Source: Verrucomicrobiia bacterium
GTDB lineage: Bacteria > Patescibacteriota > Saccharimonadia > Saccharimonadales > JAGQNK01
Length of the DNA: 64,000 bases
NCBI GenBank assembly: GCA_035489575.1
Contig: DATHJY010000011.1
Coordinates: 148,514 to 212,513 of the forward strand
Direction: 5' to 3'
The notes under the pieces are model-generated. The model did not search any database. It saw only the letters and a list, made by a program, of their open reading frames with translations, and was not told the origin of the DNA. Positions 46,120 through 63,370 of the stretch are shown piece by piece. The first letter of the stretch is position 1. Each line of letters begins with the position of its first letter. A program made the position numbers and the translations under genes.

Positions 46120-46121
46120 AT

Positions 46122-47459: not shown

Positions 47460-47487
47460 CAGCTTCGCGCAACGCGGAGCTGTTTTT
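47460..47487 (+). terminator. intrinsic terminator after rplA
   Basis: CAGCTTCGCG/CGCGGAGCTG 10-bp stem with one G-U pair and loop CAA, then TTTTT. Confidence 0.8.
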
Positions 47488-47505
47488 CTGTAGAATAGAT
47501 AGGTA

Positions 47506-48261: not shown

Positions 48262-48262
48262 C

Positions 48263-48706: not shown

Positions 48707-48794
48707 GCCCCACCTGTAGTTGTATTATTGTACTAACGCTTGCATCACAGTTTTGACACCCCGTACAATACATACACATTAGAGGGAGTAATCA

Positions 48795-49496: not shown

Positions 49497-50311
49497 TGGG
49501 TGCAATTGACCAAGATCCATGGTTTTTGAGTGACAAGCTAGAAGGCAAATACCCCGTTGCATCGCCAGATGAGTTGGCCGATGAATGGCACGCCTACACA
49601 GAACGAGAAACGCACGCACTACAGGGTGTGTTAGGTGCCTACGCCAAACCTGTCGGGGAAGTATGTGCCGTCGCCTCTATCGATTTATGCGAAGTAACGC
49701 GTGACACAGCCGTAAGCCTTGGCGATTTGGTCGGCGAACCACTCGAACGCGGACAGTACTCAGAGGGCACCTGGTATTCTGTCGAAAACATGGGGTTAGA
49801 TTTTGAATACTCAGTCGTACTTGGTGGGCTCCAACACCTCATGAACAACGACCTCGTAGGAGCCATCCCAGGAATTGACGAGGTGAGCCACACCTTGCGT
49901 GGCTGGCGAGAGCAAGGCGTCTATATGGCGGCCAATACATCTACCTTGCCCGGCTGCGAACTTGCTACTATCCGTCATCACCTCGAAAAAGATCTGAAAG
50001 GATGCTTTGACGCCCTTCTTCTACCTCGCAACTACGACGGCAGAGGGAAAATGACCAAGGCGCAGGCTCTGGATGTGCTCGGCCAAGAAGCCGGGATAGA
50101 CATAGGGGCGCTGCCACTGGTACACATTGACGACGCTACCCACCATGTCCAGGGATTTATTGATCACTTCGGGGACCATCCGACAAGCGCATTCCTAATG
50201 CCAGCACACAACTACAACCAAGCACCCGTGGCAGAGATGCGCTGCGAAGATCCGCCTGAGGCATTCGCACGAGCACACGAATTCTTACAAAAACAAGGAG
50301 TACTGCAATGA
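49496..50311 (+). CDS. hypothetical protein, possibly HAD/NT5C-like nucleotidase fold
   Basis: Overlapping start and stop with both neighbours. IDLCEV aligns where DxDxV is expected, and HIDD occurs late in the sequence. Weak. Confidence 0.35.
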   Translation: MGAIDQDPWFLSDKLEGKYPVASPDELADEWHAYTERETHALQGVLGAYAKPVGEVCAVASIDLCEVTRDTAVSLGDLVGEPLERGQYSEGTWYSVENMGLDFEYSVVLGGLQHLMNNDLVGAIPGIDEVSHTLRGWREQGVYMAANTSTLPGCELATIRHHLEKDLKGCFDALLLPRNYDGRGKMTKAQALDVLGQEAGIDIGALPLVHIDDATHHVQGFIDHFGDHPTSAFLMPAHNYNQAPVAEMRCEDPPEAFARAHEFLQKQGVLQ

Positions 50312-52644
50312 GCGAAAAAGGTGTGTTTCTAGTCATCGAGGGCACTGACGGATCAGGCAAGGGTACCCAGTTTAAATTGCTAGAGGAACACTTACGCCAG
50401 CAGGGTCACGACGTGGTGACGTGTGATTTTCCACAGTACGATCAGCCCTCTAGCTTTTTTGTACGCGAATACCTAAACGGCAAGTACGGCACTGCGGACG
50501 AAGTAGGCCCCTATACCGGTTCGCTCTTTTACGCCCTAGACCGCTACCACGCTGCCTCCCAGATCCGGGAAGCTCTGGAAGCCGGCAAGGTAGTGCTAGC
50601 CAACCGCTTTACGGGCAGCAACATGGCCCACCAAGGCACCAAGTTCAACCACGCCGAAGAACGCCGGGGCTATTTTATCTGGTTGGACAACCTCGAGTTC
50701 CAGATGCTGGGCATCCCGCGCCCAGACAAGAGTTTCGTACTCCGGGTGCCAGCCGAGATCGCCCAAAAACTAGTAGACCAAAAAGAGCAGCGCAGCTACA
50801 CCGATAAAAAACGCGATATCCACGAGGCCGACCTAGGCCACCTGCAAAAAGCCGTCCAAGTCTACGATGACCTATGTCAGCTATTTCCCAAGGACTTCCA
50901 GCGGCTGGACTGTGTGCGAGGCGACACACTGCTTTCTATCGACCAAGTTCAAAATATGCTCCGCAAAACTATCCAGCCACTGCTACCAAAACCAGCTGGC
51001 AAGAAATCAGCTGCCACCACGGCAAAAGCCCCCAGTAGTATCAAGAAGCCAGACAACCCGTACGTCAAAAAGACCAGTCATGGCTGGGAAGTGACAGAGG
51101 CCGGCAAGCAGTTCCTAGAAGCAGCCATAACCAACGTAGACGGCGATGTCTATGCCTTCAAAGATAAGCTAAGCACGCTTACGGTGGCAGCAGCCATGGC
51201 CAGACTCAGTCGCCGCGGGGACGACATGCGTGTCACCATGCTGGACGAATTTGCTATGCACGAGGGCAAAGACGAAGGCCTGATCCACCGCGTAATTACC
51301 GCCTATGGGGACGACTCCGTCCAACAGCTAGTGGGCCAACACATCGTGGTAGAGAACGCTAGCAACCTACTGACCAAACAGCTCGAATGGGGACGCTTGG
51401 CGTCCTACCTAGAACAGTCCACCCGCTATATTTACTTTGACCAGAAAGATGCCAAAGGGCAATACAAATACTACACACCAGATCATATAGATGAGCTGAC
51501 CACGGCCAAATACACCGCCACCATGGATAGCATTTTTGACACCTACTCGTCCATGGCCCGCGATCTGACAAATTATTTGCAGATCCACTCATCTACCCCC
51601 AAAGAAGAGCAAGACGGTGCCTGGCGCGGGGCCATCCGGGCTCAAGCCTGCGATGCCATCCGGGCAACGCTGCCCGTAGCCACCAAGTCTACCGTGGGTA
51701 TTTTTGCCAGCGGCCAGGCGCTAGAGATGCTTATCATGCGTCTGCGGGCCAGCGAAAGCAAAGAAGCCCAAGCCGTTGGCGAGCAAGTTCTGCAAGAAGC
51801 CCGCAAAGTTATCCCAACCTTCCTGGAGCGAGCCGACAAGCCCGAACGTGGTGGTGCCACCACCGCCTACCTGTCTGACAACCGCAAAGCCATGAAGTCA
51901 GTGGCCAATCGATACCTACCAGACACCCACAGTAACGGCCACCAAGCCGTTACCCTGCACAGCGTCTGGCCCCGCAAAGAACTAGACCTGGTGCCACACA
52001 TGCTCTACGAATCGACGCAGCTGTCACTAGAAGAAATCACCAAAGAAGTAAACACCTGGCCCATAGACAGAAAGCTCGAAGTATTCAACACCTACATAGG
52101 AGAGCGCCTGAATCGCCGGCACCGTCCGGCCCGGGCATTGGAGCAGGCACACTACACCTGGGATCTGCTGTGTGACTACGGCATTTTCCGTGACCTGCAG
52201 CGCCACCGCATGGTGGACGACCTACAGTGGCAAGCGCTGACCCCCCGATACGGCTACGAAATACCCAAGCTGGTAGAAGACGCCGACCTGACCGAATCGT
52301 TCGAGAAGTGTTTTGACCTGTCTGCCAGGTTGTATTCCACACTCCAGGCCGCCGGCTATCTCTACGAAGCCCAGTATGCCACCTTGTTGGGACACCGCAT
52401 GCGCTGGAAGATTACCTATAATGCCCGCGAAGCATTTCACCTGCACGAACTGCGTACCAGCCCCCAGGGACACCCCGGCTACCGCAAACTCGTGCTCGAA
52501 ATGCACCAGAAACTGGCCGAGGTTCACCCCATGCTGGCCGAAGCCATGAAGTTTGTGAACCAAGGGGAAGACCCCGAGCTAACCCGTCTGGCAGCCGAAC
52601 GCTACACCCAGTTCAAGCTGCAGCAGATGCCGGAAAATATCTAA
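50308..52644 (+). CDS. fusion protein: thymidylate kinase plus large FAD-dependent thymidylate synthase (ThyX-like)
   Basis: N-terminal FLVIEGTDGSGKGTQ...DRYHAASQ...NMAHQG is Tmk-like. C-terminal ~560 aa carry FRDLQRHRM and NAREAFHLHELRTSPQGHPGYR, which are ThyX-type blocks. Confidence 0.75.
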   Translation: MSEKGVFLVIEGTDGSGKGTQFKLLEEHLRQQGHDVVTCDFPQYDQPSSFFVREYLNGKYGTADEVGPYTGSLFYALDRYHAASQIREALEAGKVVLANRFTGSNMAHQGTKFNHAEERRGYFIWLDNLEFQMLGIPRPDKSFVLRVPAEIAQKLVDQKEQRSYTDKKRDIHEADLGHLQKAVQVYDDLCQLFPKDFQRLDCVRGDTLLSIDQVQNMLRKTIQPLLPKPAGKKSAATTAKAPSSIKKPDNPYVKKTSHGWEVTEAGKQFLEAAITNVDGDVYAFKDKLSTLTVAAAMARLSRRGDDMRVTMLDEFAMHEGKDEGLIHRVITAYGDDSVQQLVGQHIVVENASNLLTKQLEWGRLASYLEQSTRYIYFDQKDAKGQYKYYTPDHIDELTTAKYTATMDSIFDTYSSMARDLTNYLQIHSSTPKEEQDGAWRGAIRAQACDAIRATLPVATKSTVGIFASGQALEMLIMRLRASESKEAQAVGEQVLQEARKVIPTFLERADKPERGGATTAYLSDNRKAMKSVANRYLPDTHSNGHQAVTLHSVWPRKELDLVPHMLYESTQLSLEEITKEVNTWPIDRKLEVFNTYIGERLNRRHRPARALEQAHYTWDLLCDYGIFRDLQRHRMVDDLQWQALTPRYGYEIPKLVEDADLTESFEKCFDLSARLYSTLQAAGYLYEAQYATLLGHRMRWKITYNAREAFHLHELRTSPQGHPGYRKLVLEMHQKLAEVHPMLAEAMKFVNQGEDPELTRLAAERYTQFKLQQMPENI

Positions 52645-52657
52645 TTATTTAACCTAA

Positions 52658-52686
52658 TTTACAAAAAAGCATAAATACAGTATAAA
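52658..52686 (+). promoter_or_regulatory. promoter TTTACA-17-TATAAA
   Basis: Upstream of GC-rich ORF 52756. A GTAGTCAC-cg-GTGACTAC hairpin lies in the 5' UTR. Confidence 0.45.
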
Positions 52687-52755
52687 TATACTCTTGTACG
52701 GTAGTCACCGTGACTACGAGTTTCATCGCCCTTTCCCAGCAAGGATGGTTTACCC

Positions 52756-53487
52756 ATGTCCCGAAAGCACCTACTGGCTGTAGTCCTCGGAGTGTTCGTG
52801 GGAGTGTTCGCGCTCCTCGCAGGGGCTGGACTCGCCGTCGTACTCCTGCCGTCCGACCCTGAGCCGTCGATCACCATCGAGTCCATCAACGGCCAGAGCA
52901 CGGCCAACGAAGACGCCAGACTGGACAAGCTGCAGGAGCACTGCTCCGGCGACTTAGGCCCTGACGGCATCGCCAGCAAGCTGGACACCGCACCCCTGAC
53001 GCTCAACGACGAGCTGGTCTACATGGTCTACGGCGACGAAGTCACCGCGCTCAACCCACAGGCACTCGTGCAGTGCGACTACGAGGCCCCCGTGGGTGAC
53101 AGCTACGTCTCGGTGTCGATCGACGCCACGTCGTTCGACGACGGCCAGGCGTACTGGGACAAAGTCATCAGCAACACCTGCGAGGGTGGCTGTGACGAGA
53201 ACGAGCCCAGCGACCACCCCAACAACGTGGACGACTCGTTCGTGGTGGATGGCAACCACGCCACCTTCATCAACGTCAAGCGTGAGCGAACGGACTTCGA
53301 CGGTCCGCAGTCACCCGTCGGCACGCTCATGGTGGTCAGCACCATCCAGGGAGACACCGAGTGCTCGGCCGTCTTCCGCACGGGAGACATCCAGCCCGAG
53401 AGCTTCACGCGGGTCACGGACACGCTCCGCGCGTTTGCAGATCAGGCCTGCGAGCTCGCCGCACAGTCGTCCACGGACGAGACCTGA
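52756..53487 (+). CDS. GC-rich membrane-anchored or secreted acidic protein, hypothetical
   Basis: N-terminal TM LLAVVLGVFVGVFALLAGAGLAVVLL. Strongly GC3-biased codons. GGCCGGGTGG/CCACCCGGCC hairpin downstream. Confidence 0.55.
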   Translation: MSRKHLLAVVLGVFVGVFALLAGAGLAVVLLPSDPEPSITIESINGQSTANEDARLDKLQEHCSGDLGPDGIASKLDTAPLTLNDELVYMVYGDEVTALNPQALVQCDYEAPVGDSYVSVSIDATSFDDGQAYWDKVISNTCEGGCDENEPSDHPNNVDDSFVVDGNHATFINVKRERTDFDGPQSPVGTLMVVSTIQGDTECSAVFRTGDIQPESFTRVTDTLRAFADQACELAAQSSTDET

Positions 53488-53678
53488 AGTTGGCTTGGCC
53501 GGGTGGGTGGACACTGTCCATATACCAAACCACCCGGCCATTCGGCCCTTATTCTGCCAAGAAACTACCGTACACTTTTCCAGAGCGCTGCATATATTTG
53601 CAGCTCTGTGGCAAAGTTATTCAAATAAATAGATACGACCTTCGTCTATGCCCGTTTGCAGCGCGGCCAACAGGGCAG

Positions 53679-53969
53679 TCATGCCCACGGGGCGCTCACG
53701 CGGGATTGCCGGTAGGTCAATCCGCCGCCGGGCCTGGCGCCGGTCCACTGACCTGGACGATTCAACTCGTTGTTGTTGCGCTCGCATAGCTTCTTCACAA
53801 CCGCCTCATCAGAGAAAAAGGCGCTGTCCATGTCTTCCAGCGACTCATAACCCATAATCTCCCACATGGGTCGCCTGTCGTTTGACGCAACCACGGGAAT
53901 GGTGGGTGCTACCTCAATACCCGGCGGTACAAGCAGTTCACACGTAGGGTCTCTTTCGATAAGGCTCAT
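53679..53969 (-). CDS. hypothetical protein
   Basis: 96-aa ORF with no motif. The 3' part is in GC-rich sequence and its extent is uncertain. Confidence 0.3.
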   Translation of the reverse strand: MSLIERDPTCELLVPPGIEVAPTIPVVASNDRRPMWEIMGYESLEDMDSAFFSDEAVVKKLCERNNNELNRPGQWTGARPGGGLTYRQSRVSAPWA

Positions 53970-54141
53970 AGTATTTTCTTTCTCTTATATCTTACTGTTT
54001 TTATGGGTAATGTGACAACTGGAGGATGGGGCTTGGAGTGATTGGTGGTGTCCTAAGACGGACAATGGCCGTGTGCGCCACTAGCCTGGGACGATCCCAA
54101 ACTCCCACCAACCGGCGTACTTCTACATGCAAACGTCCCGA

Positions 54142-54423
54142 CTAGGCCACCGCCAGGCGAGCTCTCTTGGGTGGCACGTACCGAATGCGCGTCCAGCCCG
54201 CTCGCGGATGGCCCTTGCGGTACTTGCGCAGCCTCAAGCGATCGACCTGCTTCATGGCTCTCAGGGCAACAGCGATTTGGTCAAGAGTGACACCCTTGAC
54301 GTCTATGTCATTGCGAAAGTTGGCGAGGTCTCCGTAAACCACCGAGCCTTTTCTCTTCATGAAGGTTTCAATAGCACGTTGGATGTACGCCTGCATTGCA
54401 TTGTCTTGTCGGGCCAAGGCCAT
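54142..54423 (-). CDS. hypothetical basic protein
   Basis: 93-aa ORF with a strong RBS (CTGGAGGA directly before the ATG). Basic C-terminus. Confidence 0.4.
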   Translation of the reverse strand: MALARQDNAMQAYIQRAIETFMKRKGSVVYGDLANFRNDIDVKGVTLDQIAVALRAMKQVDRLRLRKYRKGHPRAGWTRIRYVPPKRARLAVA

Positions 54424-54771
54424 TCCTCCAGTTGTCGTGTTCTAACTTACAAAGCCAGAACTGGTGCTATCCCCCCTAAGGGATCTATGGAAGTCAGTGC
54501 TCCCACCCAGTGAACTTGGTAGTGTAGACAAGTCCACTGGGCGGATTCGCTGACTGTTGCGAAAGTGTGGGTTAAAAAAACCGGATCCAGCCTTATGGTT
54601 GGATCCGGTAGAGTTTTGCTTTGTTGCTGTGTATTTCTATGCGGCGTTACCAGTTCCAACCATTTTGTTCCAAATGAGCACATAGCCAAACACTTGGCGT
54701 AGATTGTGCTTCATAGTGGTGGTTGAACTTTGGTAGGTCACGGTAAAAACTTTACGCTATAGCCCGATCAG

Positions 54772-54800
54772 TTGTCAAGCCTGGGTGCTTATGGTATGAT
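54772..54800 (+). promoter_or_regulatory. promoter TTGTCA-17-TGgTATGAT
   Basis: -35 at 54772-77 and extended -10 at 54792-800. ATG of the leader ORF is 10 nt downstream. Confidence 0.55.
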
Positions 54801-54810
54801 CCACCCCATT

Positions 54811-54891
54811 ATGCGTTTTAACCATGCTAACAGTTTGCTCCTCCTCAGCCTTAACGGGCTGTGCTTCAGCAGGGTTGAAGCCAAGGGTTAG
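54811..54891 (+). CDS. putative Leu-responsive leader peptide (26 aa)
   Basis: MRFNHANSLLLLSLNGLCFSRVEAKG. Four consecutive Leu codons at 54835-46 and two more downstream. Embedded in alternative hairpins. Confidence 0.5.
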   Translation: MRFNHANSLLLLSLNGLCFSRVEAKG

Positions 54892-54920
54892 CGCCCTCTT
54901 GCACAGTCCAAAACCAAAAA

Positions 54921-54944
54921 AGGCTTCAACCAGAAGTCTTTTTT
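54921..54944 (+). terminator. attenuator terminator
   Basis: AGGCTTC-aacca-GAAGTCT followed by TTTTT. The 5' arm can alternatively pair with TTGAAGCC at 54875-82. Confidence 0.6.
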
Positions 54945-54963
54945 AACTTTTTAGGAGAAAATT

Positions 54964-55200
54964 ATGGCCGCCGAAGGATTAACAGTAGAGCAGGGCGTAT
55001 TAAGAGACCCGAACATGGCAGATGCAGAGCACACTCGACGCGTTGCCACGCTCTCGGGGTACCCCAGCATGCAACAAAGAATAGCAGCAGCCTCTATGGA
55101 TAAGGTTGATACAGTGCCGGTAGACGAGGTAACGGATATTCCTGATCTTGCCCGGCGGATGGCGATTGCTAGTACTGTGACGGTCGATCACGTCCTGTAG
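54964..55200 (+). CDS. hypothetical small acidic protein
   Basis: 78-aa ORF with RBS TAGGAGAAA. Confidence 0.45.
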   Translation: MAAEGLTVEQGVLRDPNMADAEHTRRVATLSGYPSMQQRIAAASMDKVDTVPVDEVTDIPDLARRMAIASTVTVDHVL

Positions 55201-55205
55201 GGTCG

Positions 55206-55234
55206 TTGACAAAAAAACAGAAGGAGAGTAACTT
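55206..55234 (+). promoter_or_regulatory. promoter TTGACA-17-TAACTT, 7 nt before ATG
   Basis: -35 at 55206-11 and -10 at 55229-34, with leader ATG at 55242. Confidence 0.4.
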
Positions 55235-55241
55235 AAGCCTC

Positions 55242-55289
55242 ATGACACAGAGACAGCTCGTGATTGAGGTGGTGATTCTCCCCGGCTAG
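55242..55289 (+). CDS. putative branched-chain amino acid leader peptide (15 aa)
   Basis: MTQRQLVIEVVILPG. Seven of eight central codons are Leu, Val or Ile. Confidence 0.5.
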   Translation: MTQRQLVIEVVILPG

Positions 55290-55328
55290 CGGGTCTCTTG
55301 TGCATGCCTAAAGATTTTGACAAGAAAC

Positions 55329-55356
55329 ATCCCGCGAAACCCGCGGGATTTTTATT
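55329..55356 (+). terminator. attenuator terminator
   Basis: ATCCCGCG-aaacc-CGCGGGAT followed by TTTTTATT. GCGGG at 55289-93 can pair with CCCGC at 55331-35 as an antiterminator. Confidence 0.65.
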
Positions 55357-55376
55357 ACAAAGATAAGGAGTAAGAC

Positions 55377-55574
55377 ATGAGCGCAGAAACAGAACCAGGA
55401 ATACCAAACTATATGAATGGTGAGGTACTTGCACTGTCCGATACAGACACCCCGGCAACCGAACCGGAAATTGACACGGACACTCCCGTTCAACCGCACG
55501 CTGACGCCATCGATGACATTCGCAACGAGCGAAATTCCAACTACGGCTATGGCGGGGAGAACTTCGGTGTCTAA
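55377..55574 (+). CDS. hypothetical small acidic protein
   Basis: 65-aa ORF with a strong RBS (AAGGAG). Overlaps the ridA start. Confidence 0.4.
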   Translation: MSAETEPGIPNYMNGEVLALSDTDTPATEPEIDTDTPVQPHADAIDDIRNERNSNYGYGGENFGV

Positions 55575-55938
55575 GGTATTTGGCCCCTACAGCCCCATCA
55601 GACAGGCCGGAAGCCTGTACTACGTGTCTGGGCAAGTAGGCGTGGACCCAGACACCAACCAGTGCGGCCACACCATAGAGGAACAAACCGGACAGGTTAT
55701 GGCCAACATGCAGACAGTTCTAGCATCCGCAGGACTTGATATAAGTGACGTAGTCAAATGCACCATCTACCTCAAGGATATGAGCGACTTCGCAAAAATG
55801 AACGACGTCTACGCTGGCTTTTTTGAGCCGCCATTCCCAGCCCGCGGTACCGTAGCCGTAAAAGACCTGCCGCACGTCGGGGGCGAGGCAAATATTCTGG
55901 TAGAGATCGAAGCCATTGCTTATAAGGAATCAGCGTGA
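55549..55938 (+). CDS. ridA: RidA/YjgF-family reactive intermediate deaminase
   Basis: FGPYSPIRQAGSLYYVSGQVGVDP...PARGTVAVKDLP...VEIEAIA. Start is ATG 55549, or GTG 55567 which has GGGGAGA upstream. Confidence 0.8.
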   Translation: MAGRTSVSKVFGPYSPIRQAGSLYYVSGQVGVDPDTNQCGHTIEEQTGQVMANMQTVLASAGLDISDVVKCTIYLKDMSDFAKMNDVYAGFFEPPFPARGTVAVKDLPHVGGEANILVEIEAIAYKESA

Positions 55939-57650
55939 GCGAACTTGATGGTGCCCAAGCGCTGGTTAGTACCCTAGAGAAACATGGGGTCGAATATATC
56001 TTTGGCTATTCCGGCGGTGCCGCTATCCCTATTTTTGATGCCTTGATCACCACCAAGACCAAGATCAAACTGATCCTGACCCGTCACGAGCAAGGCGCTG
56101 CCCACATGGCTGACGGCTATGCTCGGGCCAGCGGCAAACCAGGCATCGTCCTAGTCACCAGCGGGCCAGGTGCCGGTAACACCGTCACTGGGCTCATGAC
56201 CGCCCAGATGGACAGCGTGCCTATTATCGTTATTTCGGGCCAGCAGATCAGATCCATGCTGGGCATGGATGCCTTCCAAGAGGCCGACATCTTTAATATG
56301 ACCATGCCAGTGGTCAAGCACAGCTACCTGATCCGCGAGACCAACGATATCCCCAGTATTGTGGACGAAGCCTTCCATATCGCTACCACTGGCCGGCCCG
56401 GCCCGGTGCTGATAGATATCCCTAAAGATGTCAGCAGTGGCGACTTTAGCGGGGAATTCGACAAGCCCATCGATTTGCCGGCCTACAAACAACCCGCCAC
56501 TATCGACCATAAGAAAATTCAGGCCATAGCCGACGCCTGGGCCAAGGCCAAAAATCCAGTCATTCTGGCGGGGCATGGCGTGTTGATTTCTGGTGCTCAC
56601 AAACAATTGACCAAATTAGCAGAGCAAATGGACACGCCCGTTACCACCACACTGCTAGGCAAGGGAGCCTTCCCTGAAACCCACCAGCTGTCGCTGGGCA
56701 TGCTGGGTATGCACGGCACCGCTTACGCCAACAAAGCCATGGTAGAGTGCGACTTTTTGCTAAACATTGGCTCGCGGTTCGACGACCGTATTGTTGGTGC
56801 GCCCGCTGCCTTCTGCAAAGACGCCTTTATTGCCCATGTCGATATTGACGCCAGCGAGATTGGCAAGATGATCCACCCCAACGCGGCCGTAGTGGCCGAC
56901 GCCAAGGCTGGCATAGAAGCACTCAGCAAAACTGTCAAGGCCCAAAAGCATAATGACTGGAACAAACACCTAGATGAATACCGCCAGAAATACCCCCTAA
57001 CCTACAGCGACAAAAACGGTCTGACCATGCAAAAGGTAATAGACGAAGTCTACAAATTTACCAAAGGCAAGGCTATCGCTGTAACAGACGTAGGACAGCA
57101 TCAGATGTGGGCCGCCCAATTCTACAAAACCGATGACCCGCACATGTGGCTCAGCTCTGGCGGTGCCGGCACCATGGGTTACGGCTTTCCTGGCGCCATT
57201 GGCGCCCAATTTGCTCGCCCCAACGACGATGTTATAGCTTTTGTGGGCGACGGTGGTTTTCAAATGACACTGTTTGAACTAGCTACCGCTTGCATCCATA
57301 AGTTGCCCCTCAAAATTTTTGTCCTGAACAATCACTATCTGGGCATGGTGCGTCAGTGGCAAGAGCTGTTCTTTGACAACCGCGAGAGCGGTGTAGATCT
57401 AGAGGGCAACCCCGACTTTGCCGCTCTGGCCGAGGCCTACGGTGCCAAAGGCGTCAACATAACGTCAGCAGATCAAATTGATGCCAAGCTCAAAGAGGCC
57501 TGGGCAGTCACCGACCGGCCAGTGGTTATCAACGTAGAAGTCATCAAGACTGATAACGTCTACCCCATGGTGCCTGCCGGTGCCCCACTAGAGAGCATGA
57601 TCGTTACCGCACCAACCACAAAACTAGCCAAACCCACAGGGAGTACTTAA
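55935..57650 (+). CDS. ilvB: acetolactate synthase large subunit
   Basis: GTGA overlap with the ridA stop. TPP motif GGAGTMGYGFPGAIGAQ...GDGGFQM...NN. Confidence 0.92.
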   Translation: MSELDGAQALVSTLEKHGVEYIFGYSGGAAIPIFDALITTKTKIKLILTRHEQGAAHMADGYARASGKPGIVLVTSGPGAGNTVTGLMTAQMDSVPIIVISGQQIRSMLGMDAFQEADIFNMTMPVVKHSYLIRETNDIPSIVDEAFHIATTGRPGPVLIDIPKDVSSGDFSGEFDKPIDLPAYKQPATIDHKKIQAIADAWAKAKNPVILAGHGVLISGAHKQLTKLAEQMDTPVTTTLLGKGAFPETHQLSLGMLGMHGTAYANKAMVECDFLLNIGSRFDDRIVGAPAAFCKDAFIAHVDIDASEIGKMIHPNAAVVADAKAGIEALSKTVKAQKHNDWNKHLDEYRQKYPLTYSDKNGLTMQKVIDEVYKFTKGKAIAVTDVGQHQMWAAQFYKTDDPHMWLSSGGAGTMGYGFPGAIGAQFARPNDDVIAFVGDGGFQMTLFELATACIHKLPLKIFVLNNHYLGMVRQWQELFFDNRESGVDLEGNPDFAALAEAYGAKGVNITSADQIDAKLKEAWAVTDRPVVINVEVIKTDNVYPMVPAGAPLESMIVTAPTTKLAKPTGST

Positions 57651-57656
57651 GATCTC

Positions 57657-57815
57657 ATGCAATGCAATTCACAAGATTCAAGACAGATGATTTTTGAGCG
57701 AAATCAACAAAATCGAGTAAGGGGTAATTGTCATTACACCGCACGAGATCTTGTTAGATTGCAGCCAAAAAGGGCTGTTTTGAAATTATGCAATTGCATT
57801 GTAGGAGGTCTTTGA
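57657..57815 (+). CDS. possible 52-aa basic Cys-containing ORF filling the ilvB-ilvN spacer
   Basis: ATG 57657 with GGGAG 13 nt upstream. TGA at 57813-15 overlaps the ilvN ATG (TGATG). Below the ORF-track cutoff. Confidence 0.25.
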   Translation: MQCNSQDSRQMIFERNQQNRVRGNCHYTARDLVRLQPKRAVLKLCNCIVGGL

Positions 57816-58069
57816 TGCAGCACGTTGACCACACCCTTGTCTTGACCGTTCGCAACCAGCCAGGCGTCTTGGTGCGCATTGCTCACGTCTTTGCCCGCCG
57901 GGGCTGCAACATTCGCTCGTTGCGCGTAGAACCTCACGCCGACGAGCAATGGTCTACCATGACCATCATAGTCCGTGACGTGCCACGCCTAGACCAGATG
58001 ATCCACCAACTGCAAAAGCTCATAGATGTCTCTACCGTCAAAGACCACACCGCCGTCCAAAAAAACTAA
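57815..58069 (+). CDS. ilvN: acetolactate synthase small subunit (short, ACT-only)
   Basis: RBS AGGAGG. HTLVLTVRNQPGVLVRIAHVFARRGCNIRSL is the ACT-domain signature. Confidence 0.75.
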   Translation: MQHVDHTLVLTVRNQPGVLVRIAHVFARRGCNIRSLRVEPHADEQWSTMTIIVRDVPRLDQMIHQLQKLIDVSTVKDHTAVQKN

Positions 58070-58770
58070 CGCCTGAACGTCGTCCCTATCTGGCCATTCA
58101 TGGCTTGTTCGATGGCATTGTCAGCCCGGCCGTGGGCTATCCACGTTTCAATGCCGGCAGCAGTGGTCAGAGCCGCGGCGTCAAATTTGGTCACCATACC
58201 ACCGGTCGCCCCGCTGCTGTTAGTGTCACCCGCCAGCTGTCTATAGGCATCTATATCGTCTATGGTCGAGATCACCGAGCTAGGGTCGCTCAAGTCTGAC
58301 AACACGCCGTGCACATCGGTGAGCATTCCAAATCGAGCCCGCACCCCCATGCCGCTGGCTTGCGTCGCAATAGCAGCCCCCACCAGGTCGTTACTGACGT
58401 ACCGGCTTTCTTTTGCGAGCCTGTCATCGTGAGCGTTGGTCACGGCAATGCGGCCAGCACGAGCGGCCGCAATAACATGACCACACCCGTTTTCTGAGTC
58501 CAGCTGGTGGTCTGTCAGCAAATAACCCTCCGTCTGGTGCTGGGTATTGGCATCCCATACCTCTAGCACACCCTCCCACCCAACATCTGGCAGCTGCTTA
58601 CGGGCGGCAGACGAAACCAAGATGACGCCACGCCCCGTCAGCCTGATCTTATCTATCTGTCTAGCTATACCCTCAACAGAGGTCTGGTCTAAACAGTCAT
58701 CTTCTACGATGGTGCTGGTGCCCACCTTGAGCACCAGCACTTCACTCATTTCTTTCATATATGTTTCCAA
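58066..58770 (-). CDS. proB: amino-acid kinase family protein, glutamate 5-kinase-like (no PUA domain)
   Basis: VLKVGTSTI, ILVSSAA, SNDLVGAAIA, MLTDVHGVLSD and GATGGMVTKFDAA follow ProB blocks. Confidence 0.65.
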   Translation of the reverse strand: METYMKEMSEVLVLKVGTSTIVEDDCLDQTSVEGIARQIDKIRLTGRGVILVSSAARKQLPDVGWEGVLEVWDANTQHQTEGYLLTDHQLDSENGCGHVIAAARAGRIAVTNAHDDRLAKESRYVSNDLVGAAIATQASGMGVRARFGMLTDVHGVLSDLSDPSSVISTIDDIDAYRQLAGDTNSSGATGGMVTKFDAAALTTAAGIETWIAHGRADNAIEQAMNGQIGTTFRR

Positions 58771-58795
58771 ATTACGCAGCAGAACGAGGGTGGGT

Positions 58796-58821
58796 ATAAA
58801 AATAACCCCTTGGTCGGGGCT
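58796..58821 (-). terminator. terminator-like hairpin in the proB-like 5' leader
   Basis: Minus strand AGCCCC-gaccaa-GGGGTT, then ATTTTTA. The G-U pair exists only in the minus-strand RNA. Confidence 0.4.
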
Positions 58822-58866
58822 GTTCTTTTGCTTGGTAATTCTTAAAAAATGTCGAAACCCCGACTG

Positions 58867-58932
58867 CTATAGAGGCAGCGGGCACGGGGGACTAAAGCCA
58901 ATGTTCCGACAGGAGTAATGCATATCTCCCAT
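58867..58932 (-). CDS. possible Pro-rich leader peptide (21 aa)
   Basis: MGDMHYSCRNIGFSPPCPLPL. The Pro codons CCC CCG form segment 1 of alternative pairings. Start could be the second ATG (58923). Confidence 0.3.
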   Translation of the reverse strand: MGDMHYSCRNIGFSPPCPLPL

Positions 58933-58993
58933 ACAATATACTAGCTTTAGCAGTTTGTCAAAATTACTAGCCGTGTCATGTCGCTTGCGGTAG

Positions 58994-59022
58994 TTGACAA
59001 GCAACCAAAAAAGAGGATGATA
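58994..59022 (+). promoter_or_regulatory. promoter TTGACA-17-ATGATA, 6 nt before ATG
   Basis: -35 at 58994-99 and -10 at 59017-22, with leader ATG at 59029. Confidence 0.4.
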
Positions 59023-59028
59023 GATACG

Positions 59029-59073
59029 ATGACTCACCGCACGATTATTGCTATCATTGCCAACCCGCTCTAG
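59029..59073 (+). CDS. putative Thr/Ile leader peptide (14 aa)
   Basis: MTHRTIIAIIANPL. Four Ile and two Thr codons, upstream of threonine dehydratase. Confidence 0.45.
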   Translation: MTHRTIIAIIANPL

Positions 59074-59105
59074 CGAGGTCGTCTGGTTTATTTACCAAGA
59101 ATCAC

Positions 59106-59127
59106 CGACCCCGCAGGGGGTTGTTTT
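59106..59127 (+). terminator. attenuator terminator
   Basis: CGACCCC-gcag-GGGGTTG followed by TTTT. GAGGTCG at 59075-81 can pair with CGACCCC as an antiterminator. Confidence 0.5.
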
Positions 59128-59143
59128 AATTTAAGGAGCCAGC

Positions 59144-59452
59144 ATGAGTGCACTCGAACAAGGAAACGCCTCAGACCCCACCGACCTGGTTGGCGGTGAA
59201 TATGTGGTGGGTTTTTTGGAGGACAAAGTCCAGGCCCTGGACGAAGCGCCTGATACATCAACAGAGGGAGTAACCCCACCACCATACGCAGACATACGCT
59301 GGCCCGAGGATAGACCAGCTCAACCTCCCGTACGACTCAGCCAAGAAGTAGTCGTGGTCATAAATGGCCAGCCAGTCATCCGTGAAGAGTTATATGCACG
59401 CACCTATTATGGTTCGTCGTCAGTTCCCCCAAGACAGGGGTTATCATCATGA
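59144..59452 (+). CDS. hypothetical acidic/Pro-rich protein
   Basis: 102-aa ORF with RBS AAGGAG. ATGA overlap with ilvA. Confidence 0.45.
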   Translation: MSALEQGNASDPTDLVGGEYVVGFLEDKVQALDEAPDTSTEGVTPPPYADIRWPEDRPAQPPVRLSQEVVVVINGQPVIREELYARTYYGSSSVPPRQGLSS

Positions 59453-60942
59453 AAGACCCTCTTAAGCAAACCCTCCTGGCACGTGTCTATGATGTTGCCA
59501 CAGAGTCGCCGCTGCAGCGGGCCACCAAACTCAGCACACAAGTAGGTGCCGATGTCTATTTGAAGCGCGAGGACTTACAGCCCGTGCACTCCTTCAAGCT
59601 GCGTGGAGCCTACAACAAAATAGCCAGCCTCAGCCCCGCCGAAAGAGCCAAGGGTGTTATTGCGGCCAGCGCCGGCAACCATGCCCAAGGCGTAGCTCTG
59701 AGTGCTCAGAAACTCGGTATCCGGGCTCTCATAGTCATGCCTACCACTACCCCCAGCATCAAGGTAGATGCCGTCAAAAGCTACGGCGCCCAGGTAGAGC
59801 TGGTTGGCGACAGCTATTCTGACGCCTACGATCACTGCATGCAGCGGGTCAAAGAAACCGGCATGACTTTTGTACATCCCTTTGACGATCCACTGGTCAT
59901 AGCCGGGCAGGGAACTATCGGTCGCGAGTTGCTAGAGCAACTGCCAGATATGACCCATGTCTTTGTTCCTGTCGGTGGCGGGGGGCTCATCGCCGGTGTC
60001 AGTCAGTTCATAAAAGGTATCCGCCCAGATGTAAAAATCATCGGTGTCGAGCCCGAAGACAGCAATGCCATGCAGCAGTCGTTACAGGCCGGCAAGGTAG
60101 TCACCCTGGACCACGTAGGGATCTTTGCCGATGGCGTAGCTGTTAAGAGCGTTGGCCAGCTCACTTTCCAGATCACCCAGAAATATGTAGACCAGGTCAT
60201 CACCGTCAGTACCGATCAAATGTGTGCTGCCATCAAATCACTATTCGAGGATACTCGCAGCATTGTCGAACCAGCCGGTGCCCTAGCCGCAGCTGGCGTG
60301 CAACACTACAAGCTACCAAAGGACGCCAAGGCCGTAGCTATCTGTTCTGGTGCCAACGTCTCCTTTGAGCGCTTGCAGCAAATTGCCGAACGTACCCTGA
60401 TAGGCTCCGGCAAAGAAGCGTTGTTTGCCGTCACCATGCCTGAACAAGCTGGTGCCCTACACACCTTTTGCCAACAGGTGCTGAATGGCCATAGCATCAC
60501 TGAGTTCAATTATCGGCTCAACAAGCGCGAAGGTGCCCATGTATTGGTTGGTGTATCTGTAGCCAACGAAGCAGACAAGCTTGCATTCATGAAAAAGATG
60601 CAGCAAGATGACTACGAGCACATAGACTTATCAGGCGACGATATCGCCAAAGAGCACGTCCGGCACATGGTAGGGGGACCAGCTGATCAGGCTAAGTCTG
60701 AGCGCTTGTATCAGATCGACTTTCCGGAGCGACCGGGTGCCCTGGGCGGCTTCCTGGCCGCCGTTGGAACAGCCTGGAACATCAGCGCCTTTCACTACCG
60801 CAATGCGGCCAGTGACACCGGCAACGTATTGATAGGCTTCGAAGTAGATAACCCCACAAAGCTAGAGGACAAACTGTCCCAAGCAGGCTACCAATGGCGA
60901 AGCGTAGACCACAGTCCTTCACTTAAAGTATTTATTGAGTAA
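59449..60942 (+). CDS. ilvA: biosynthetic threonine dehydratase (with C-terminal regulatory domains)
   Basis: PLP-lysine motif LQPVHSFKLRGAYNK, the GGGGL loop and two ACT-like C-terminal repeats. Confidence 0.92.
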   Translation: MKDPLKQTLLARVYDVATESPLQRATKLSTQVGADVYLKREDLQPVHSFKLRGAYNKIASLSPAERAKGVIAASAGNHAQGVALSAQKLGIRALIVMPTTTPSIKVDAVKSYGAQVELVGDSYSDAYDHCMQRVKETGMTFVHPFDDPLVIAGQGTIGRELLEQLPDMTHVFVPVGGGGLIAGVSQFIKGIRPDVKIIGVEPEDSNAMQQSLQAGKVVTLDHVGIFADGVAVKSVGQLTFQITQKYVDQVITVSTDQMCAAIKSLFEDTRSIVEPAGALAAAGVQHYKLPKDAKAVAICSGANVSFERLQQIAERTLIGSGKEALFAVTMPEQAGALHTFCQQVLNGHSITEFNYRLNKREGAHVLVGVSVANEADKLAFMKKMQQDDYEHIDLSGDDIAKEHVRHMVGGPADQAKSERLYQIDFPERPGALGGFLAAVGTAWNISAFHYRNAASDTGNVLIGFEVDNPTKLEDKLSQAGYQWRSVDHSPSLKVFIE

Positions 60943-61183
60943 CCAAGGAACTAGCATGGCAAACGGAAGAATGTTAGAGAGATCGCCCATTGCAGAGAAT
61001 CGCAGAGCAATGCAAGACAGAGGGGTCGACCTGAGACGAGTTGAAGCGATGGCACTACATGCAGACCTTCAACACCAAAAAGAGCTGGCGCCGCCCGTCG
61101 GCCGCACCGCTCTGGACGGGGCAAAGATTCAACTCCCCAAGGAAGAGGAAGAACAGCCTACCGAACCCATAGACATTGTGTGA
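60935..61183 (+). CDS. hypothetical protein
   Basis: 82-aa ORF overlapping the ilvA end. No motif recognised. Confidence 0.3.
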   Translation: MSNQGTSMANGRMLERSPIAENRRAMQDRGVDLRRVEAMALHADLQHQKELAPPVGRTALDGAKIQLPKEEEEQPTEPIDIV

Positions 61184-61277
61184 TGTACTACCTAGAAAGC
61201 CCCTGGAACAAAACAAGTTTTTATGAGATAATATACACTTTCCTGTCCATCGATTTCCTCTAGGAGGATACGGAGTC

Positions 61278-61964
61278 ATGACTGACCCCCAGGAAAGCAC
61301 CCACACCCAGCCGAGCTTCTACATCGAGAACCCGGCGGACGATGCCAAGGCCAACGAGATCGTCGTGGTCTTCAGCTTCCAGCTGTTCGGCACCGAAATC
61401 AGCGCCATCCGCGCCTACGCCAGGCAGTTCGAGGGCTTCGGCAGCATCCACGAGCAGGAGGGCAGCACCCAGCTGACCTTCAATCTGCTACCGCAGTTCA
61501 ACTACACGGAGCAGCGTGACATCGTCGTCAAGGCCATAATGGCCAGCGTCGAAGGGATCGAGAAGATCGAGGAGCCGAAGGTCAAGAGGTACTTCATGCC
61601 GCTACTCAAGCGCGCCGTGCCCGATGTGCTGGCTCCCGAGGTCGTCAGTGGCCCGTGCTATAAGGTGCACAAGGGCGCCTATGCCGCCGCTCATCGTGTG
61701 ATCAGCTTGAGTGTCCGCATCACCGATGATCAGCACGAGCAGGTCAGCCAGATGCTCGATCGATCACCGGCGACCCGCCGCATCGACCCCTTCACCACGC
61801 AGTTCGTGGTCTTCTACAACGACGATCACTTCGTCGATGCCGGCCTGGAAGCACTGATCCACGAGACGGTGAAGAGCGTCTTCGGTGACGACATGACACT
61901 CGTATCCAACGACGCCCTCTTCGAGTCCACCGCCGTTCCGGCGAAGGAGCAGCCCGAGCAATAG
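61278..61964 (+). CDS. GC-rich hypothetical protein
   Basis: 228 aa. RBS TAGGAGGA. Extended -10 TGaGATAAT upstream. Strongly GC3-biased codons unlike the flanking rpl and ilv genes. Confidence 0.55.
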   Translation: MTDPQESTHTQPSFYIENPADDAKANEIVVVFSFQLFGTEISAIRAYARQFEGFGSIHEQEGSTQLTFNLLPQFNYTEQRDIVVKAIMASVEGIEKIEEPKVKRYFMPLLKRAVPDVLAPEVVSGPCYKVHKGAYAAAHRVISLSVRITDDQHEQVSQMLDRSPATRRIDPFTTQFVVFYNDDHFVDAGLEALIHETVKSVFGDDMTLVSNDALFESTAVPAKEQPEQ

Positions 61965-61973
61965 GGGTGCACT

Positions 61974-62068
61974 AGTCAGTGTGGGTAGGCAGGTACGAGC
62001 GCATCAGGATGTTTTTGCGGAATTTCCGTAAACCACCCCGATCCTCGCACCTGCCGCCCACACTGACT
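61974..62068 (+). repeat. long imperfect inverted repeat after the GC-rich ORF
   Basis: AGTCAGTGTGGGTAGGCAGGTACGAG (61974-99) pairs with CTCGCACCTGCCGCCCACACTGACT (62044-68). The loop is ~44 nt. Confidence 0.6.
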
Positions 62069-62297
62069 CCCTACATACAATTGACTTTTATTAACAGATA
62101 CGGTAAGCTCTCTTAGTTACCAAAGACAGCGACGGGCAACAGCCTTGATAATGTCGCCGAGGTGCAAACAATTCGTTTTTTGTTTTGTGAGCACGCTTAG
62201 AAGCTTCTTGGTAACAGGAAGCTTCTTTGGTTTCTTAAGCAAGGATTTACCGGTCGAGAGTCTTTGCTCAAACTCATAACAATAGGGAGAAGCATTA

Positions 62298-62822
62298 ATG
62301 GCTTTAACCAAAGATAAGAAAAATGAAGTCATCGATGAAGTCAGCAAACTGCTGGCCGACTCAAAGATGACCGTCGTAGCTGCTTACCAGGGTACTCCTG
62401 TAAAGGCTATGCAAGCACTCCGCCGCGAAGGCAAAAGTACTGGCACTCAGATGAAAGTCGTCAAGAACCGTTTGGTCATCAAGGCCATCCAGGGAACTGA
62501 CAACCTCAAAGATGTCGATACCAGCGCCCTGAACGGAATGCTTCTATACGCCTTTAACAACGAGGACGAGGTAGCACCTGCCCAAACACTGGCAAACTTT
62601 GCCAAAACCCAACCAACGCTTGCGTTTGTTGGCGCTTTTTCTGCAGAAGGCAAGTTCCTGAGTGCAGAAGAAGTAACCGCACTGGCTACACTGCCCAGCA
62701 AGAACGAGCTTATTGCTCAGGTTGTTGCAACGCTTCTGTCACCAGTCAACGACATCGTAGGCGCACTTTCAGGCAACCTACACGCCTTGTTGGATGGCAT
62801 CGAGGCTAAAGCCTCGGCTTGA
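62298..62822 (+). CDS. rplJ: 50S ribosomal protein L10
   Basis: MALTKDKKNEVIDEVSKLLADSKMTVVAAYQG. Preceded by a ~190-nt structured leader that includes the AGAAGCTTC/GAAGCTTCT hairpin at 62199-226. Confidence 0.9.
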   Translation: MALTKDKKNEVIDEVSKLLADSKMTVVAAYQGTPVKAMQALRREGKSTGTQMKVVKNRLVIKAIQGTDNLKDVDTSALNGMLLYAFNNEDEVAPAQTLANFAKTQPTLAFVGAFSAEGKFLSAEEVTALATLPSKNELIAQVVATLLSPVNDIVGALSGNLHALLDGIEAKASA

Positions 62823-62834
62823 GTGTGCGTGCAC

Positions 62835-62943
62835 GTTTAGGCGGCACATCTTGGGCGCAGATCTTGCGTCTGAGTCCTCACCGTACCAAGGTACGCCTCG
62901 GACTCAAGCCTCGATCCGCATCCCAACCTGCACTCGCCTAAAC
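62835..62943 (+). repeat. ~109-nt imperfect hairpin in the rplJ-rplL spacer
   Basis: GTTTAGGCG...TTGGG...GCAGATC...TGAGTCC pairs with GGACTCA...GATCCGC...CCCAA...CGCCTAAAC. Apical CGTACC-aa-GGTACG. Confidence 0.6.
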
Positions 62944-62989
62944 ATCCACTTCACAGTGGTAAATTGACAAGAAAACTAAGGAGATATAC

Positions 62990-63370
62990 ATGGCAACTGA
63001 TCTAAAGAAATTCGCAAAGGAACTGACAGAACTTACTGTTCTTGAAGTTAACGAACTAAAGACTATCCTGAAGGATGAATACGGCATCGAGCCAGCAGCA
63101 GCCGCTGTAGCAGTAGCCGGTCCAGCAGCTGGCGGCGACGCTCCAGCAGAGGACGCAAAGTCTGAATACGACGTCGTCCTGAAGGACGCCGGTGCTCAGA
63201 AAGTAGCAGTCATCAAGGCCGTTAAGGATCTAACCGGTCTGGGTCTGGGCGAAGCCAAGGCTGTCGTAGACGGCGTCCCAAAGACTGTTTTGGAAAAGGC
63301 AAAGAAGGAAGACGCAGAAGCCGCCAAGAAAGCCTTGGAAGAAGCTGGCGCAACTGTCGAACTAGCCTAA
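62990..63370 (+). CDS. rplL: 50S ribosomal protein L7/L12
   Basis: Ala-rich hinge and C-terminal domain [25 protein letters not shown]...[10 protein letters not shown]. Confidence 0.92.

Follow-up and report, generated by a model that had tools for sequence, protein, structure and literature searches.

The window analysed here is a 64,000-nt stretch of contig DATHJY010000011.1 (positions 148,514 to 212,513 of the forward strand; assembly GCA_035489575.1). Its plus strand carries ilvA, which encodes a biosynthetic threonine ammonia-lyase and is preceded by a small gene, orf102, and by the element under study, a promoter followed by a 14-codon open reading frame (ORF) with four isoleucine codons and by a set of predicted alternative RNA helices. 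Our results point to a ribosome-mediated leader-peptide transcription attenuator that would tune orf102–ilvA to charged tRNA-Ile, a reading to which we give a probability of about 0.75. The only close relative with DNA for comparing the element is L082, a 26.8-kb Logan contig, which makes two independent sequences in all. The features of the element, with the putative roles of its RNA segments, and the genes that follow it are:

58994–58999, plus strand: −35 hexamer TTGACA, a perfect consensus match.
59016–59021, plus strand: −10 hexamer GATGAT, after a 16-nt spacer, with 7 nt left to the leader ATG.
59029–59073, plus strand: leader ORF MTHRTIIAIIANPL plus TAG, 14 codons, stop codon at 59071–59073.
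59044–59058, plus strand: regulatory codons ATT ATT GCT ATC ATT (Ile-6, Ile-7, Ile-9 and Ile-10).
59061–59068, plus strand: anti-antiterminator segment CAACCCGC, pairing with GGGUUG at 59118–59123 (long hairpin) or locally as ACCCGC:GCG(A)GGU; invariant in L082.
59073–59081, plus strand: antiterminator 5' arm GCGAGGUCG, beginning at the G of the stop codon; invariant in L082.
59082–59100, plus strand: apical hairpin UCUGGU-UUAUUU-ACCAAGA (UCUG...CAGA in L082).
59106–59123, plus strand: terminator hairpin CGACCCC-GCAG-GGGGUUG, 7 pairs (5 G-C, 1 G-U), −11.6 kcal/mol.
59124–59132, plus strand: U tract TTTTAATTT, with TTTT at 59124–59127; identical in L082.
59133–59138, plus strand: ribosome-binding site (RBS) AAGGAG of orf102, 5 nt before its ATG at 59144 (TAGGAG in L082).
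59144–59452, plus strand: orf102, a small protein whose gene overlaps ilvA by ATGA and whose C-terminal half, PPVRLSQEVVVVINGQPVTREELYARTYY, is conserved.
59449–60942, plus strand: ilvA, biosynthetic threonine ammonia-lyase with two C-terminal regulatory domains.

The upstream neighbour (58066–58770), a divergent amino-acid kinase gene with proB as best match, lies on the minus strand; the hairpin therefore cannot terminate an upstream gene and lies within the 5' leader of orf102–ilvA. There is no room for a further promoter either, since the terminator lies only 16 nt before the ATG of orf102. The ilvA product matches Pfam PALP and, in two stretches, Thr_dehydrat_C, and scores 703.6 bits with NCBIfam TIGR01124, for a cut-off of 411. 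This match, the AAGGAG, the orf102 start and the ATGA junction at 59449 bear out a preliminary description of this stretch, made from its letters, which had proposed that an ORF translationally coupled to threonine dehydratase follows the leader.

The leader ORF reads ATG ACT CAC CGC ACG ATT ATT GCT ATC ATT GCC AAC CCG CTC TAG, as the preliminary description had it, from its start to its stop and with its four isoleucine codons. At the window isoleucine frequency of 5.3%, four isoleucines in 13 codons have a probability of 0.004, and four within five consecutive codons a probability of 2.6e-4; isoleucine codons are clustered in a 5' leader ORF, upstream of ilvA. The leader peptide of L082 is MTHRAIITIIANPL, in which all four isoleucine codons are identical and two non-isoleucine codons swap threonine and alanine. 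Only 1/14 third codon positions of the leader ORF differs between the window and L082, compared to about 37% in ilvA and ilvB. The peptide had also been called rich in both threonine and isoleucine, of which the isoleucine part holds and the threonine part does not: Thr-5 is alanine in L082, and threonine codons were rejected as sensors, only the four isoleucine codons being both conserved and enriched. Longer leader frames, starting at ATG 59017 or 58978, were rejected too, because their extra residues are not conserved in L082 (MIDT vs. MIAR) and their upstream part lies inside ilvN there.

Upstream of the ORF, TTGACA-16-GATGAT agrees with 10/12 consensus positions in a consensus scan. The −35 hexamer had been correctly placed before, whereas the −10 proposed with it, ATGATA, is off by one in register and matches TATAAT at 1/6 positions, against 4/6, including A2 and T6, for GATGAT. 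The −35 is identical in L082 despite a different upstream context, which is the end of ilvN there and the divergent kinase gene in the window, and the same hexamer is found 5' of the isoleucine/leucine/valine-type (ILV-type) leaders and of most Leu-type leaders described below. GATGAT is also kept in L082, with a spacer of 17 nt and again 7 nt to the ATG, and these last 7 nt are the least conserved stretch of the element (3/7 differ). As the −10 ends only 7 nt before the ATG, we infer that the transcript starts at, or within about 1 nt of, the leader ATG at 59029, which would make the leader mRNA leaderless. A −35/−10 pair ending 6–10 nt before the ATG, most commonly 7 nt, is present in 13/15 leaders compared, that is in 11/13 besides the window Ile leader and its L082 counterpart; the distance is 6–7 nt in 6/6 Ile and ILV leaders and 7–10 nt in most Leu-type leaders. 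Such a layout was also noted at ordinary window genes: at the gene starts 1862, 12216, 31928 and 44467, a −10 (TATACT, TATAAT or TATGAT) ends 6–8 nt before the ATG, which suggests that leaderless mRNAs are common in the host organism.

Downstream of the ORF, the hairpin at 59106–59123 followed by UUUUAAUUU is a predicted intrinsic terminator located between the leader ORF and the first gene; its coordinates, its seven base pairs with one G-U and its TTTT are as previously given. Its 5' arm, extended to 59114, doubles as the 3' arm of the putative antiterminator, GCGAGGUCG pairing as GCG:CGC and GGUCG:CGACC with 59106–59114. The pairing of GAGGTCG (59075–59081) with the terminator 5' arm, which had already been claimed, is confirmed, and is two base pairs longer than stated at the time. 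Folded without constraint, the 111-nt region reaches −32.2 kcal/mol (z = −2.9; 2/200 shuffles equal). The minimum-energy fold is not the short terminator but a long imperfect hairpin ending at the U tract, because of an extra CAACCC:GGGUUG helix. In this long hairpin, CAACCC (59061–59066) pairs with GGGUUG (59118–59123), CU with AG, GCG (59073–59075) with CGC (59112–59114) and GGUCG (59077–59081) with CGACC (59106–59110), below the small apical hairpin. A local hairpin, ACCCGC-UCUA-GCG(A)GGU (−6.4 kcal/mol), formed alongside the terminator, can moreover sequester the antiterminator arm without any ribosome. The CAACCC:GGGUUG helix, the ribosome-free long hairpin and this local hairpin are additions to the preliminary description.

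Constraint folding of the window sequence, a check proposed in that description, gives three ribosome-dependent states when a ribosome is masked with its 3' edge at the A-site nucleotide +12. With the A site at codon 7 or earlier, the long hairpin is dominant (P = 0.85). With the A site at codons 8, 9 and 10, the antiterminator is kept (P = 0.83, 0.82 and 0.48, respectively), the base helix is lost, and GGUUG and the U tract are unpaired; on Ile-10, the antiterminator is about even with the terminator. Once the A site has reached codon 11, and up to the stop codon, the short terminator prevails (P = 0.81–0.98), with P = 0.98 at the stop codon itself, where the modelled ribosome covers GCGAGGUCG. 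In folding of the growing transcript with the ribosome on Ile-9 or Ile-10, the antiterminator GCGAGGUCG:CGACC-CGC appears once 59112 emerges. In these models, the antiterminator excludes the terminator; a ribosome at the stop codon hides the antiterminator 5' arm, which would be free during a stall at Ile-9 or Ile-10. The ribosome logic advanced earlier is thus upheld as to occlusion at the stop codon and narrowed as to the stall, which in the model frees the arm at Ile-9 and Ile-10 and not at Ile-6 and Ile-7. In this reading, the sensing would fall to Ile-9 and Ile-10 alone, and threonine would have no part in it.

Conservation in L082 follows the same elements. The gene order there is leuA-like, small ORF, ridA, ilvB, ilvN, the element, orf105, ilvA, small ORF, rplJ and rplL; a kinase gene is absent, and the −35 of the element comes directly after the ilvN stop codon. 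The two IlvA proteins are 93% identical, while the third codon positions of ilvA and ilvB are only 63% identical, so that silent sites have strongly diverged. Of the 99 positions between the leader ATG and the last T of TTTT, both included, 89 are nevertheless identical (binomial P = 2e-9 against 63.5%). Conservation of the leader ORF, of its regulatory codons and of the alternative helices is hence 90%, vs. 63% at neutral sites, and the helix segments CAACCC, GCGAGGUCG, CGACCCCGC and GGGGUUG are all invariant. The terminator stems are identical, with a GCAA loop in L082 and a GCAG loop in the window. Among the ten differences, seven fall in the apical hairpin, in the spacer after it or in the terminator loop, and those in the coding part include two amino-acid changes, both at non-isoleucine codons.

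All the elements of an attenuator are present in the expected order and spacing, and we propose that they could work as follows. From TTGACA-16-GATGAT, RNA polymerase would initiate at the A of ATG 59029 or beside it, and the leader ORF would be translated as a leaderless mRNA. When isoleucine is plentiful, the ribosome would reach the TAG at 59071–59073 and cover CAACCC and GCGAGGUCG, CGACCCC:GGGGUUG would form and transcription would terminate at 59124–59127. When Ile-tRNA is scarce, the ribosome would stall with Ile-9 or Ile-10 in the A site, covering CAACCC(GC) and leaving GCGAGGUCG free. In this stalled state, GCGAGGUCG would pair with the nascent CGACC-CGC, and GGGGUUG, left without a partner, would allow readthrough into orf102–ilvA. 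Without a ribosome, or with a stall before codon 8, either the CAACCC:GGGUUG long hairpin or the local ACCCGC/GCG(A)GGU hairpin would lead to termination. Control of ilvA by isoleucine through attenuation had been put forward in the preliminary description, and it is supported by the folding, by the position of the element, by its conservation in L082 and by the existence of parallel leaders.

These parallel leaders came from a scan of the window and related loci for short ATG ORFs with a hairpin and T-run within 70 nt:

55206–55376, plus strand: ILV-rich leader MTQRQLVIEVVILPG, ORF 55242–55289 (ATG 55242, TAG 55287–55289), preceded by TTGACA-17-TAACTT-7-ATG.
55329–55349, plus strand: terminator of the ILV leader, ATCCCGCG-AAAC-CCGCGGGAT plus T5.
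54772–54960, plus strand: Leu-run leader, ORF 54811–54891, which precedes only a 78-residue ORF (54964–55200) in the window.
58961–58800, minus strand: Pro leader MHYSCRNIGFSPPCPLPL, ATG 58923, with a divergent promoter TTGACA-17-TATTGT and four prolines in its last seven residues.
Other loci: Leu/Ile-run leaders at L082 422–547, L004 1485–1611, L163 130–258, L010 156–293, L019 224–364, L020 375–511 and L022 2280–2394.

The ILV leader lies ahead of orf65 (55377–55574), ridA, ilvB and ilvN, and has orthologues reading MIKKLVIEVVNLPG in L082, MTKSKLVIEVVILPD in L004 and L083, and MIQRQLVIEVIVLPD in L163, the terminator stems of which differ. When the Ile and ILV leaders are aligned, the score is 54, vs. 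17 ± 8 for dinucleotide shuffles, and exceeds all 1000 of these; the two leaders have a common core, CCCG-n-CTAGCG-GGTC-TCT, around the stop codon. Judged from this comparison, the Ile leader probably arose by copying and recoding of the ILV leader in the same genome. The Leu-run leader has a counterpart in L082 that precedes an HMGL-like gene (leuA or cimA type). It belongs to a Leu/Ile-run family of 23–29 codons with an invariant ...GLCF[ST]MVEA... tail, the DNA of which, GGTTGAAGCC, complements the terminator arm GGCTTCAACC further downstream. LLLL runs are found in the window, L082, L004 and L163, IIIL upstream of ilvB in L010, L019 and L020, and IIL in L022; this family has no Rfam match. 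The Pro leader is followed by two hairpin and T-run sites (58864–58851 and 58821–58804), with complementary arms GTCGGGG and CCCCGAC, and lies 5' of the proB-like amino-acid kinase gene (58770–58066); from its sequence, it is a possible proline attenuator.

The ILV, Leu and Pro leaders are built alike, each with −35 and −10 hexamers close upstream of its ATG and with a terminator. The first two, which were looked for in other loci, are conserved in 4–9 related ones, and their regulatory residues are kept across loci, with varying flanking residues. In each leader, the amino-acid bias tracks the downstream pathway, which is hard to explain unless ribosomes translate these ORFs. IlvA channels threonine into isoleucine alone, and acetohydroxy acid synthase (IlvBN) serves isoleucine, leucine and valine. 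An Ile-only leader therefore fits ilvA, and an ILV leader fits ilvBN. A small acidic ORF was also seen between each of these plus-strand elements and the biosynthetic genes, at 59144–59452 (102 residues), 55377–55574 (65 residues) and 54964–55200 (78 residues).

The distribution of the Ile element is narrow. The exact window ilvA protein is present on a few soil-metagenome contigs, and a metagenome scan with ilvA gave no match above 79% identity. A survey covered 145 ilvA loci for which 150 nt or more upstream could be read; a short Ile-rich ORF followed by a terminator-like hairpin turned up only on the contigs of the window itself and in L082, plus one case that is probably due to chance. 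In L163 (P0008, 77% ilvA identity), ilvN overlaps ilvA, and in P0006 (80%), a 77-residue ORF overlaps both ilvN and ilvA; in the gene maps of P0006, P0007 (77%) and P0008, which come next after L082 in a protein search with ilvA, no space is left for a leader between ilvA and ilvN, the overlapping 77-residue ORF or ridA. RidA is encoded directly 5' of ilvA in L004, in L083 (77%) and in loci labelled Saccharibacteria. L004, the closest species representative by ilvA in a scan of a genome collection (77%), has a degenerate hairpin and TTTTAATTT, and no Ile ORF. Comparison of ilvA upstream regions, as earlier envisaged, shows strong conservation in L082 and absence of the element from relatives at 74–80% identity. 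As these lower-identity relatives are without it, the promoter-leader-terminator module appears to have been inserted recently, in the ancestor shared by the window lineage and L082, where an ILV-type copy would have entered between ilvN and orf102–ilvA.

In the same survey, a different mini-ORF, M.SIMIITC.PRK, was seen conserved about 50 nt upstream of ilvA in gammaproteobacterial metagenome-assembled genomes (L143 2386–2450; also L068, L070, L073, L141, L144–L147 and L162), with a hairpin CCGCGC...GCGCGG and TTTT overlapping its stop codon. It may be an independent Ile leader for ilvA.

Several points weigh against attenuation by isoleucine at the window element. The hairpin is moderate, at −11.6 kcal/mol, and its U tract is short (UUUU AA UUU). 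The leader ORF has no Shine-Dalgarno sequence at normal spacing, GAGGA (59013–59017) ending 11 nt before the ATG, and its translation therefore depends on the leaderless start proposed above. Only two of the four isoleucine codons would sense, because a modelled ribosome at Ile-6 or Ile-7 stands too far 5' to expose the antiterminator. At equilibrium, the terminator of L082 is favoured even with the ribosome on Ile-9 or Ile-10 (antiterminator P = 0.33 and 0.12, respectively), so that antitermination would rest on kinetics there. Such equilibrium folding is only indicative, as it did not reproduce a clear antiterminator state for the ILV leader. No compensatory change is found among 20 stem pairs between the window and L082, in a comparison of two sequences. 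Finally, the element is carried by these two lineages only, and in L159 (79% ilvA identity) and L084 (74%), ilvN abuts ilvA without any leader; given its absence from relatives at 74–80% identity, the element is young and dispensable.

The alternative that survives best, although we consider it unlikely, is that the ORF occurs by chance and that the hairpin and U tract form a constitutive structure of the 5' untranslated region, or an ordinary terminator (that of ilvBN in L082), without any sensing. In a 9-kb region, 14 hairpin and T-run sites were found where 9.6 ± 2.8 are expected, and as such sites are no rarer than chance, the hairpin alone proves nothing; this is also a point against attenuation. 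Furthermore, the whole window contains about a dozen combinations of a short ORF with a hairpin, mostly inside genes, and the L082 element lies about 100 nt downstream of ilvN on the same strand. In the window, however, the opposite orientation of the upstream gene leaves nothing to terminate, and the 16 nt between the U tract and orf102 leave no space for a promoter. A chance ORF would also not account for a conservation of 90%, vs. 63% for neutral sites, that includes the ATG, all isoleucine codons and the stop, for a segment complementary to the terminator arm that sits exactly at the stop codon, or for three similarly built, pathway-matched leaders in the same window.

A rather improbable alternative is that the element is a small-RNA gene, or a dual-function attenuator with a trans-acting product or peptide, like rnTrpL/peTrpL of Sinorhizobium meliloti. 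Its own strong −35, its defined terminator and its very high nucleotide conservation, third codon positions included, would suit a small RNA, and trans-acting RNAs and peptides derived from attenuators are documented in two reports (PMC7968998, PMC7298713). The conserved stretches are, however, all accounted for by the alternative helices and the isoleucine codons, and the site directly 5' of ilvA, with parallel leaders at ilvBN and the proB-like gene, argues for cis action. A role in trans would in any case supplement attenuation and not replace it.

It is very unlikely that the terminator/antiterminator switch is real but set by something other than a ribosome, namely an RNA-binding protein, an uncharged tRNA (T-box-like) or a metabolite (riboswitch). 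The alternative helices exist regardless of their reader, and branched-chain amino-acid operons of Firmicutes use T-boxes and protein regulators. Against this, a search of 58771–59160 gave no Rfam match even at E ≤ 10. A T-box (RF00230) was rejected, as no match to it was found and as the leader, of about 100 nt, is too short for the 200–300 nt or so needed with a specifier loop and T-box sequence. Moreover, the frame, its ATG, its stop and its isoleucine codons are conserved, both the ILV and the Leu type keep their regulatory residues, and four leaders have an amino-acid bias that follows the pathway downstream of them. We give equally little credence to the same attenuator being translated not as a leaderless mRNA but from a longer transcript through GAGGA, by ilvBN readthrough in L082: GAGGATGATAG is fully conserved, GGAG-like motifs also occur in promoter spacers of ILV-type leaders and the L082 element is 3' of ilvN on its strand, but the motif is 11–15 nt from the ATG, vs. 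5 nt for orf102, the gap between −10 and ATG is fixed in the Ile and ILV leaders and in most Leu-type ones, several ordinary window genes also have a −10 beside their ATG, and the window has no upstream gene on the same strand.

Taken together, attenuation by isoleucine through a putatively leaderless leader peptide remains the reading that we favour. A wider scenario can be built on it, to which we would give somewhat less than an even chance. A soil lineage resembling Saccharibacteria would make its own branched-chain amino acids under leaderless attenuators of the Leu, ILV, Ile and Pro types, the Ile type being a recent duplicate of the ILV one, in which LVIEVVIL was rewritten to IIAII, the helices were remodelled in step and ilvA was split off as an Ile-specific unit. 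If this is true, it would possibly be the first ribosome-coupled attenuation in the candidate phyla radiation, and would offer a dated example of attenuator specificity evolving by duplication and recoding. A full-text literature search found no paper linking Saccharibacteria with leader-peptide attenuation.

The mechanism itself is textbook and not a new kind of regulation; it is the lineage that is unusual. The Saccharibacteria-like group is generally portrayed as auxotrophic and with poor regulation, and our reading would extend to it leader-peptide attenuation, hence a tight link between transcription and translation. Relatives that carry the element and relatives that lack it bracket the origin of what would be a rare recent duplication, followed by recoding to a single amino acid and by uncoupling of one gene from its operon. 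With regard to annotation, leader ORFs of 14–26 codons and their terminators are missed by gene finders and by Rfam, and such leaders would identify orf102–ilvA, ridA–ilvBN and the proB-like gene as true biosynthetic units controlled by amino acids.

The host, an uncultured bacterium, is inferred to be Saccharibacteria-like from synteny and from the identity of ribosomal proteins L10 and L12 (70%/87% to L010, UBA6224, and 83%/87% to L007). The closest ilvA loci among species representatives are labelled Saccharibacteria, Saccharimonadia or "bacterium", with one Limnocylindria, and some related loci also have ilv genes beside rplJ–rplL. The labels Verrucomicrobiae (NCBI, source of the window) and Limnocylindria (L004) of the metagenome-assembled genomes look inconsistent with synteny. 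When L005–L021 are compared with the window ilvA, IlvA of the Saccharibacteria-like clade is 65–70% identical to that of Spirochaeta/Alkalispirochaeta, closer than to that of most other bacteria, which suggests horizontal transfer of ilvA.

Around the element, ridA, ilvB and ilvN lie farther upstream on the plus strand, and ilvA is followed by two small ORFs, by rplJ, with an Rfam L10 leader, and by rplL. The orf102 protein matched no family in Pfam or NCBIfam, and a search of 5.8 billion proteins yielded just two homologues (63% and 53% identity), the L082 orthologue being 63% identical; the second homologue, P0003, is encoded on a contig of 931 nt, in which 120 nt precede the ORF. The pairs rplK–rplA and rplJ–rplL, which are usually adjacent, are about 15 kb apart in the window (45661–63370), and between them lie genes for a deoxynucleoside monophosphate kinase, a dCTP deaminase and a Tmk–ThyX fusion (778 residues), ORFs without known function and the whole ilv cluster. 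L1 of the window has an N-terminal extension of about 110 residues (339 residues in total), common to many relatives. Upstream of rplK–rplA, sigma-70 domains are matched in ORFs 42028–43227, 43109–44434 and 44467–45525; the first and second of these share about 120 nt, read in different frames.

Known leader families of Rfam were rejected as an identity for the Ile element. At gathering thresholds, the whole window yields only two tRNAs and the L10 leader, and at E ≤ 10, nothing is reported on the Ile element in 54700–59200. In E. coli, the ilvL and ivbL attenuators control branched-chain amino-acid genes, with ilvA lying within ilvGMEDA. The Ile element resembles these attenuators of ilvGMEDA and ilvBN in its leader ORF rich in the end product, its mutually exclusive terminator and antiterminator and the location of its terminator before the first gene. 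The E. coli leaders, however, have 32 codons with mixed Ile, Val and Leu, a Shine-Dalgarno sequence and multi-enzyme operons behind them, whereas the present one has 14 codons, is Ile-only and apparently leaderless, and precedes only ilvA and a small ORF; no relationship in sequence or in Rfam connects them. The predicted logic is also that of the trp attenuator (RF00513), in which full translation leads to termination, a stall to readthrough and lack of translation to termination. The amino acid and the taxon differ, and the Ile element is without an Rfam match, while the ILV leader scores 26.5 bits with this Trp_leader family, below its gathering score of 41.

A parallel in scheme is the ilvBNC attenuator of C. 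glutamicum, another leader-peptide attenuator for branched-chain amino acids, for which leaderless initiation of the leader mRNA has been discussed and three alternative hairpins, including an anti-antiterminator, have been described (PMC11857589). This three-hairpin scheme matches our three predicted states, although the phylum is another one, the controlled gene is ilvA and not ilvBNC, and the codons are Ile-only vs. mixed. As for leaderless leaders, 14 predicted leader peptides of Deinococcus deserti start at, or one nt after, the 5' end of the transcript, upstream of genes for amino-acid biosynthesis and tRNA synthetases, and are enriched in the cognate residue (PMC4007540). They have, as here, a −10 hexamer 6–7 nt before the ATG; their starts were mapped by differential RNA sequencing, whereas ours are deduced from promoter geometry, and the phylum is different and the sequences unrelated.

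Also close to the Ile element is the ILV leader of its own genome (55206–55349), which has the same −35, the same distance between −10 and ATG, the same ATGAC start and stop-codon core, and likewise a terminator with a U tract, an RBS and a small acidic ORF. The two differ in their codons (LVIEVVIL in the ILV leader vs. IIAII), in their antiterminator arm (GCGGG vs. GCGAGGUCG) and in their terminator stems, which are AUCCCGCG/CGCGGGAU or AGCCCCGC/GCGGGGCU in the former and CGACCCC/GGGGUUG in the latter. The ILV leader is present in four species-level lineages (window, L082, L004 and L163), compared to two for the Ile type.

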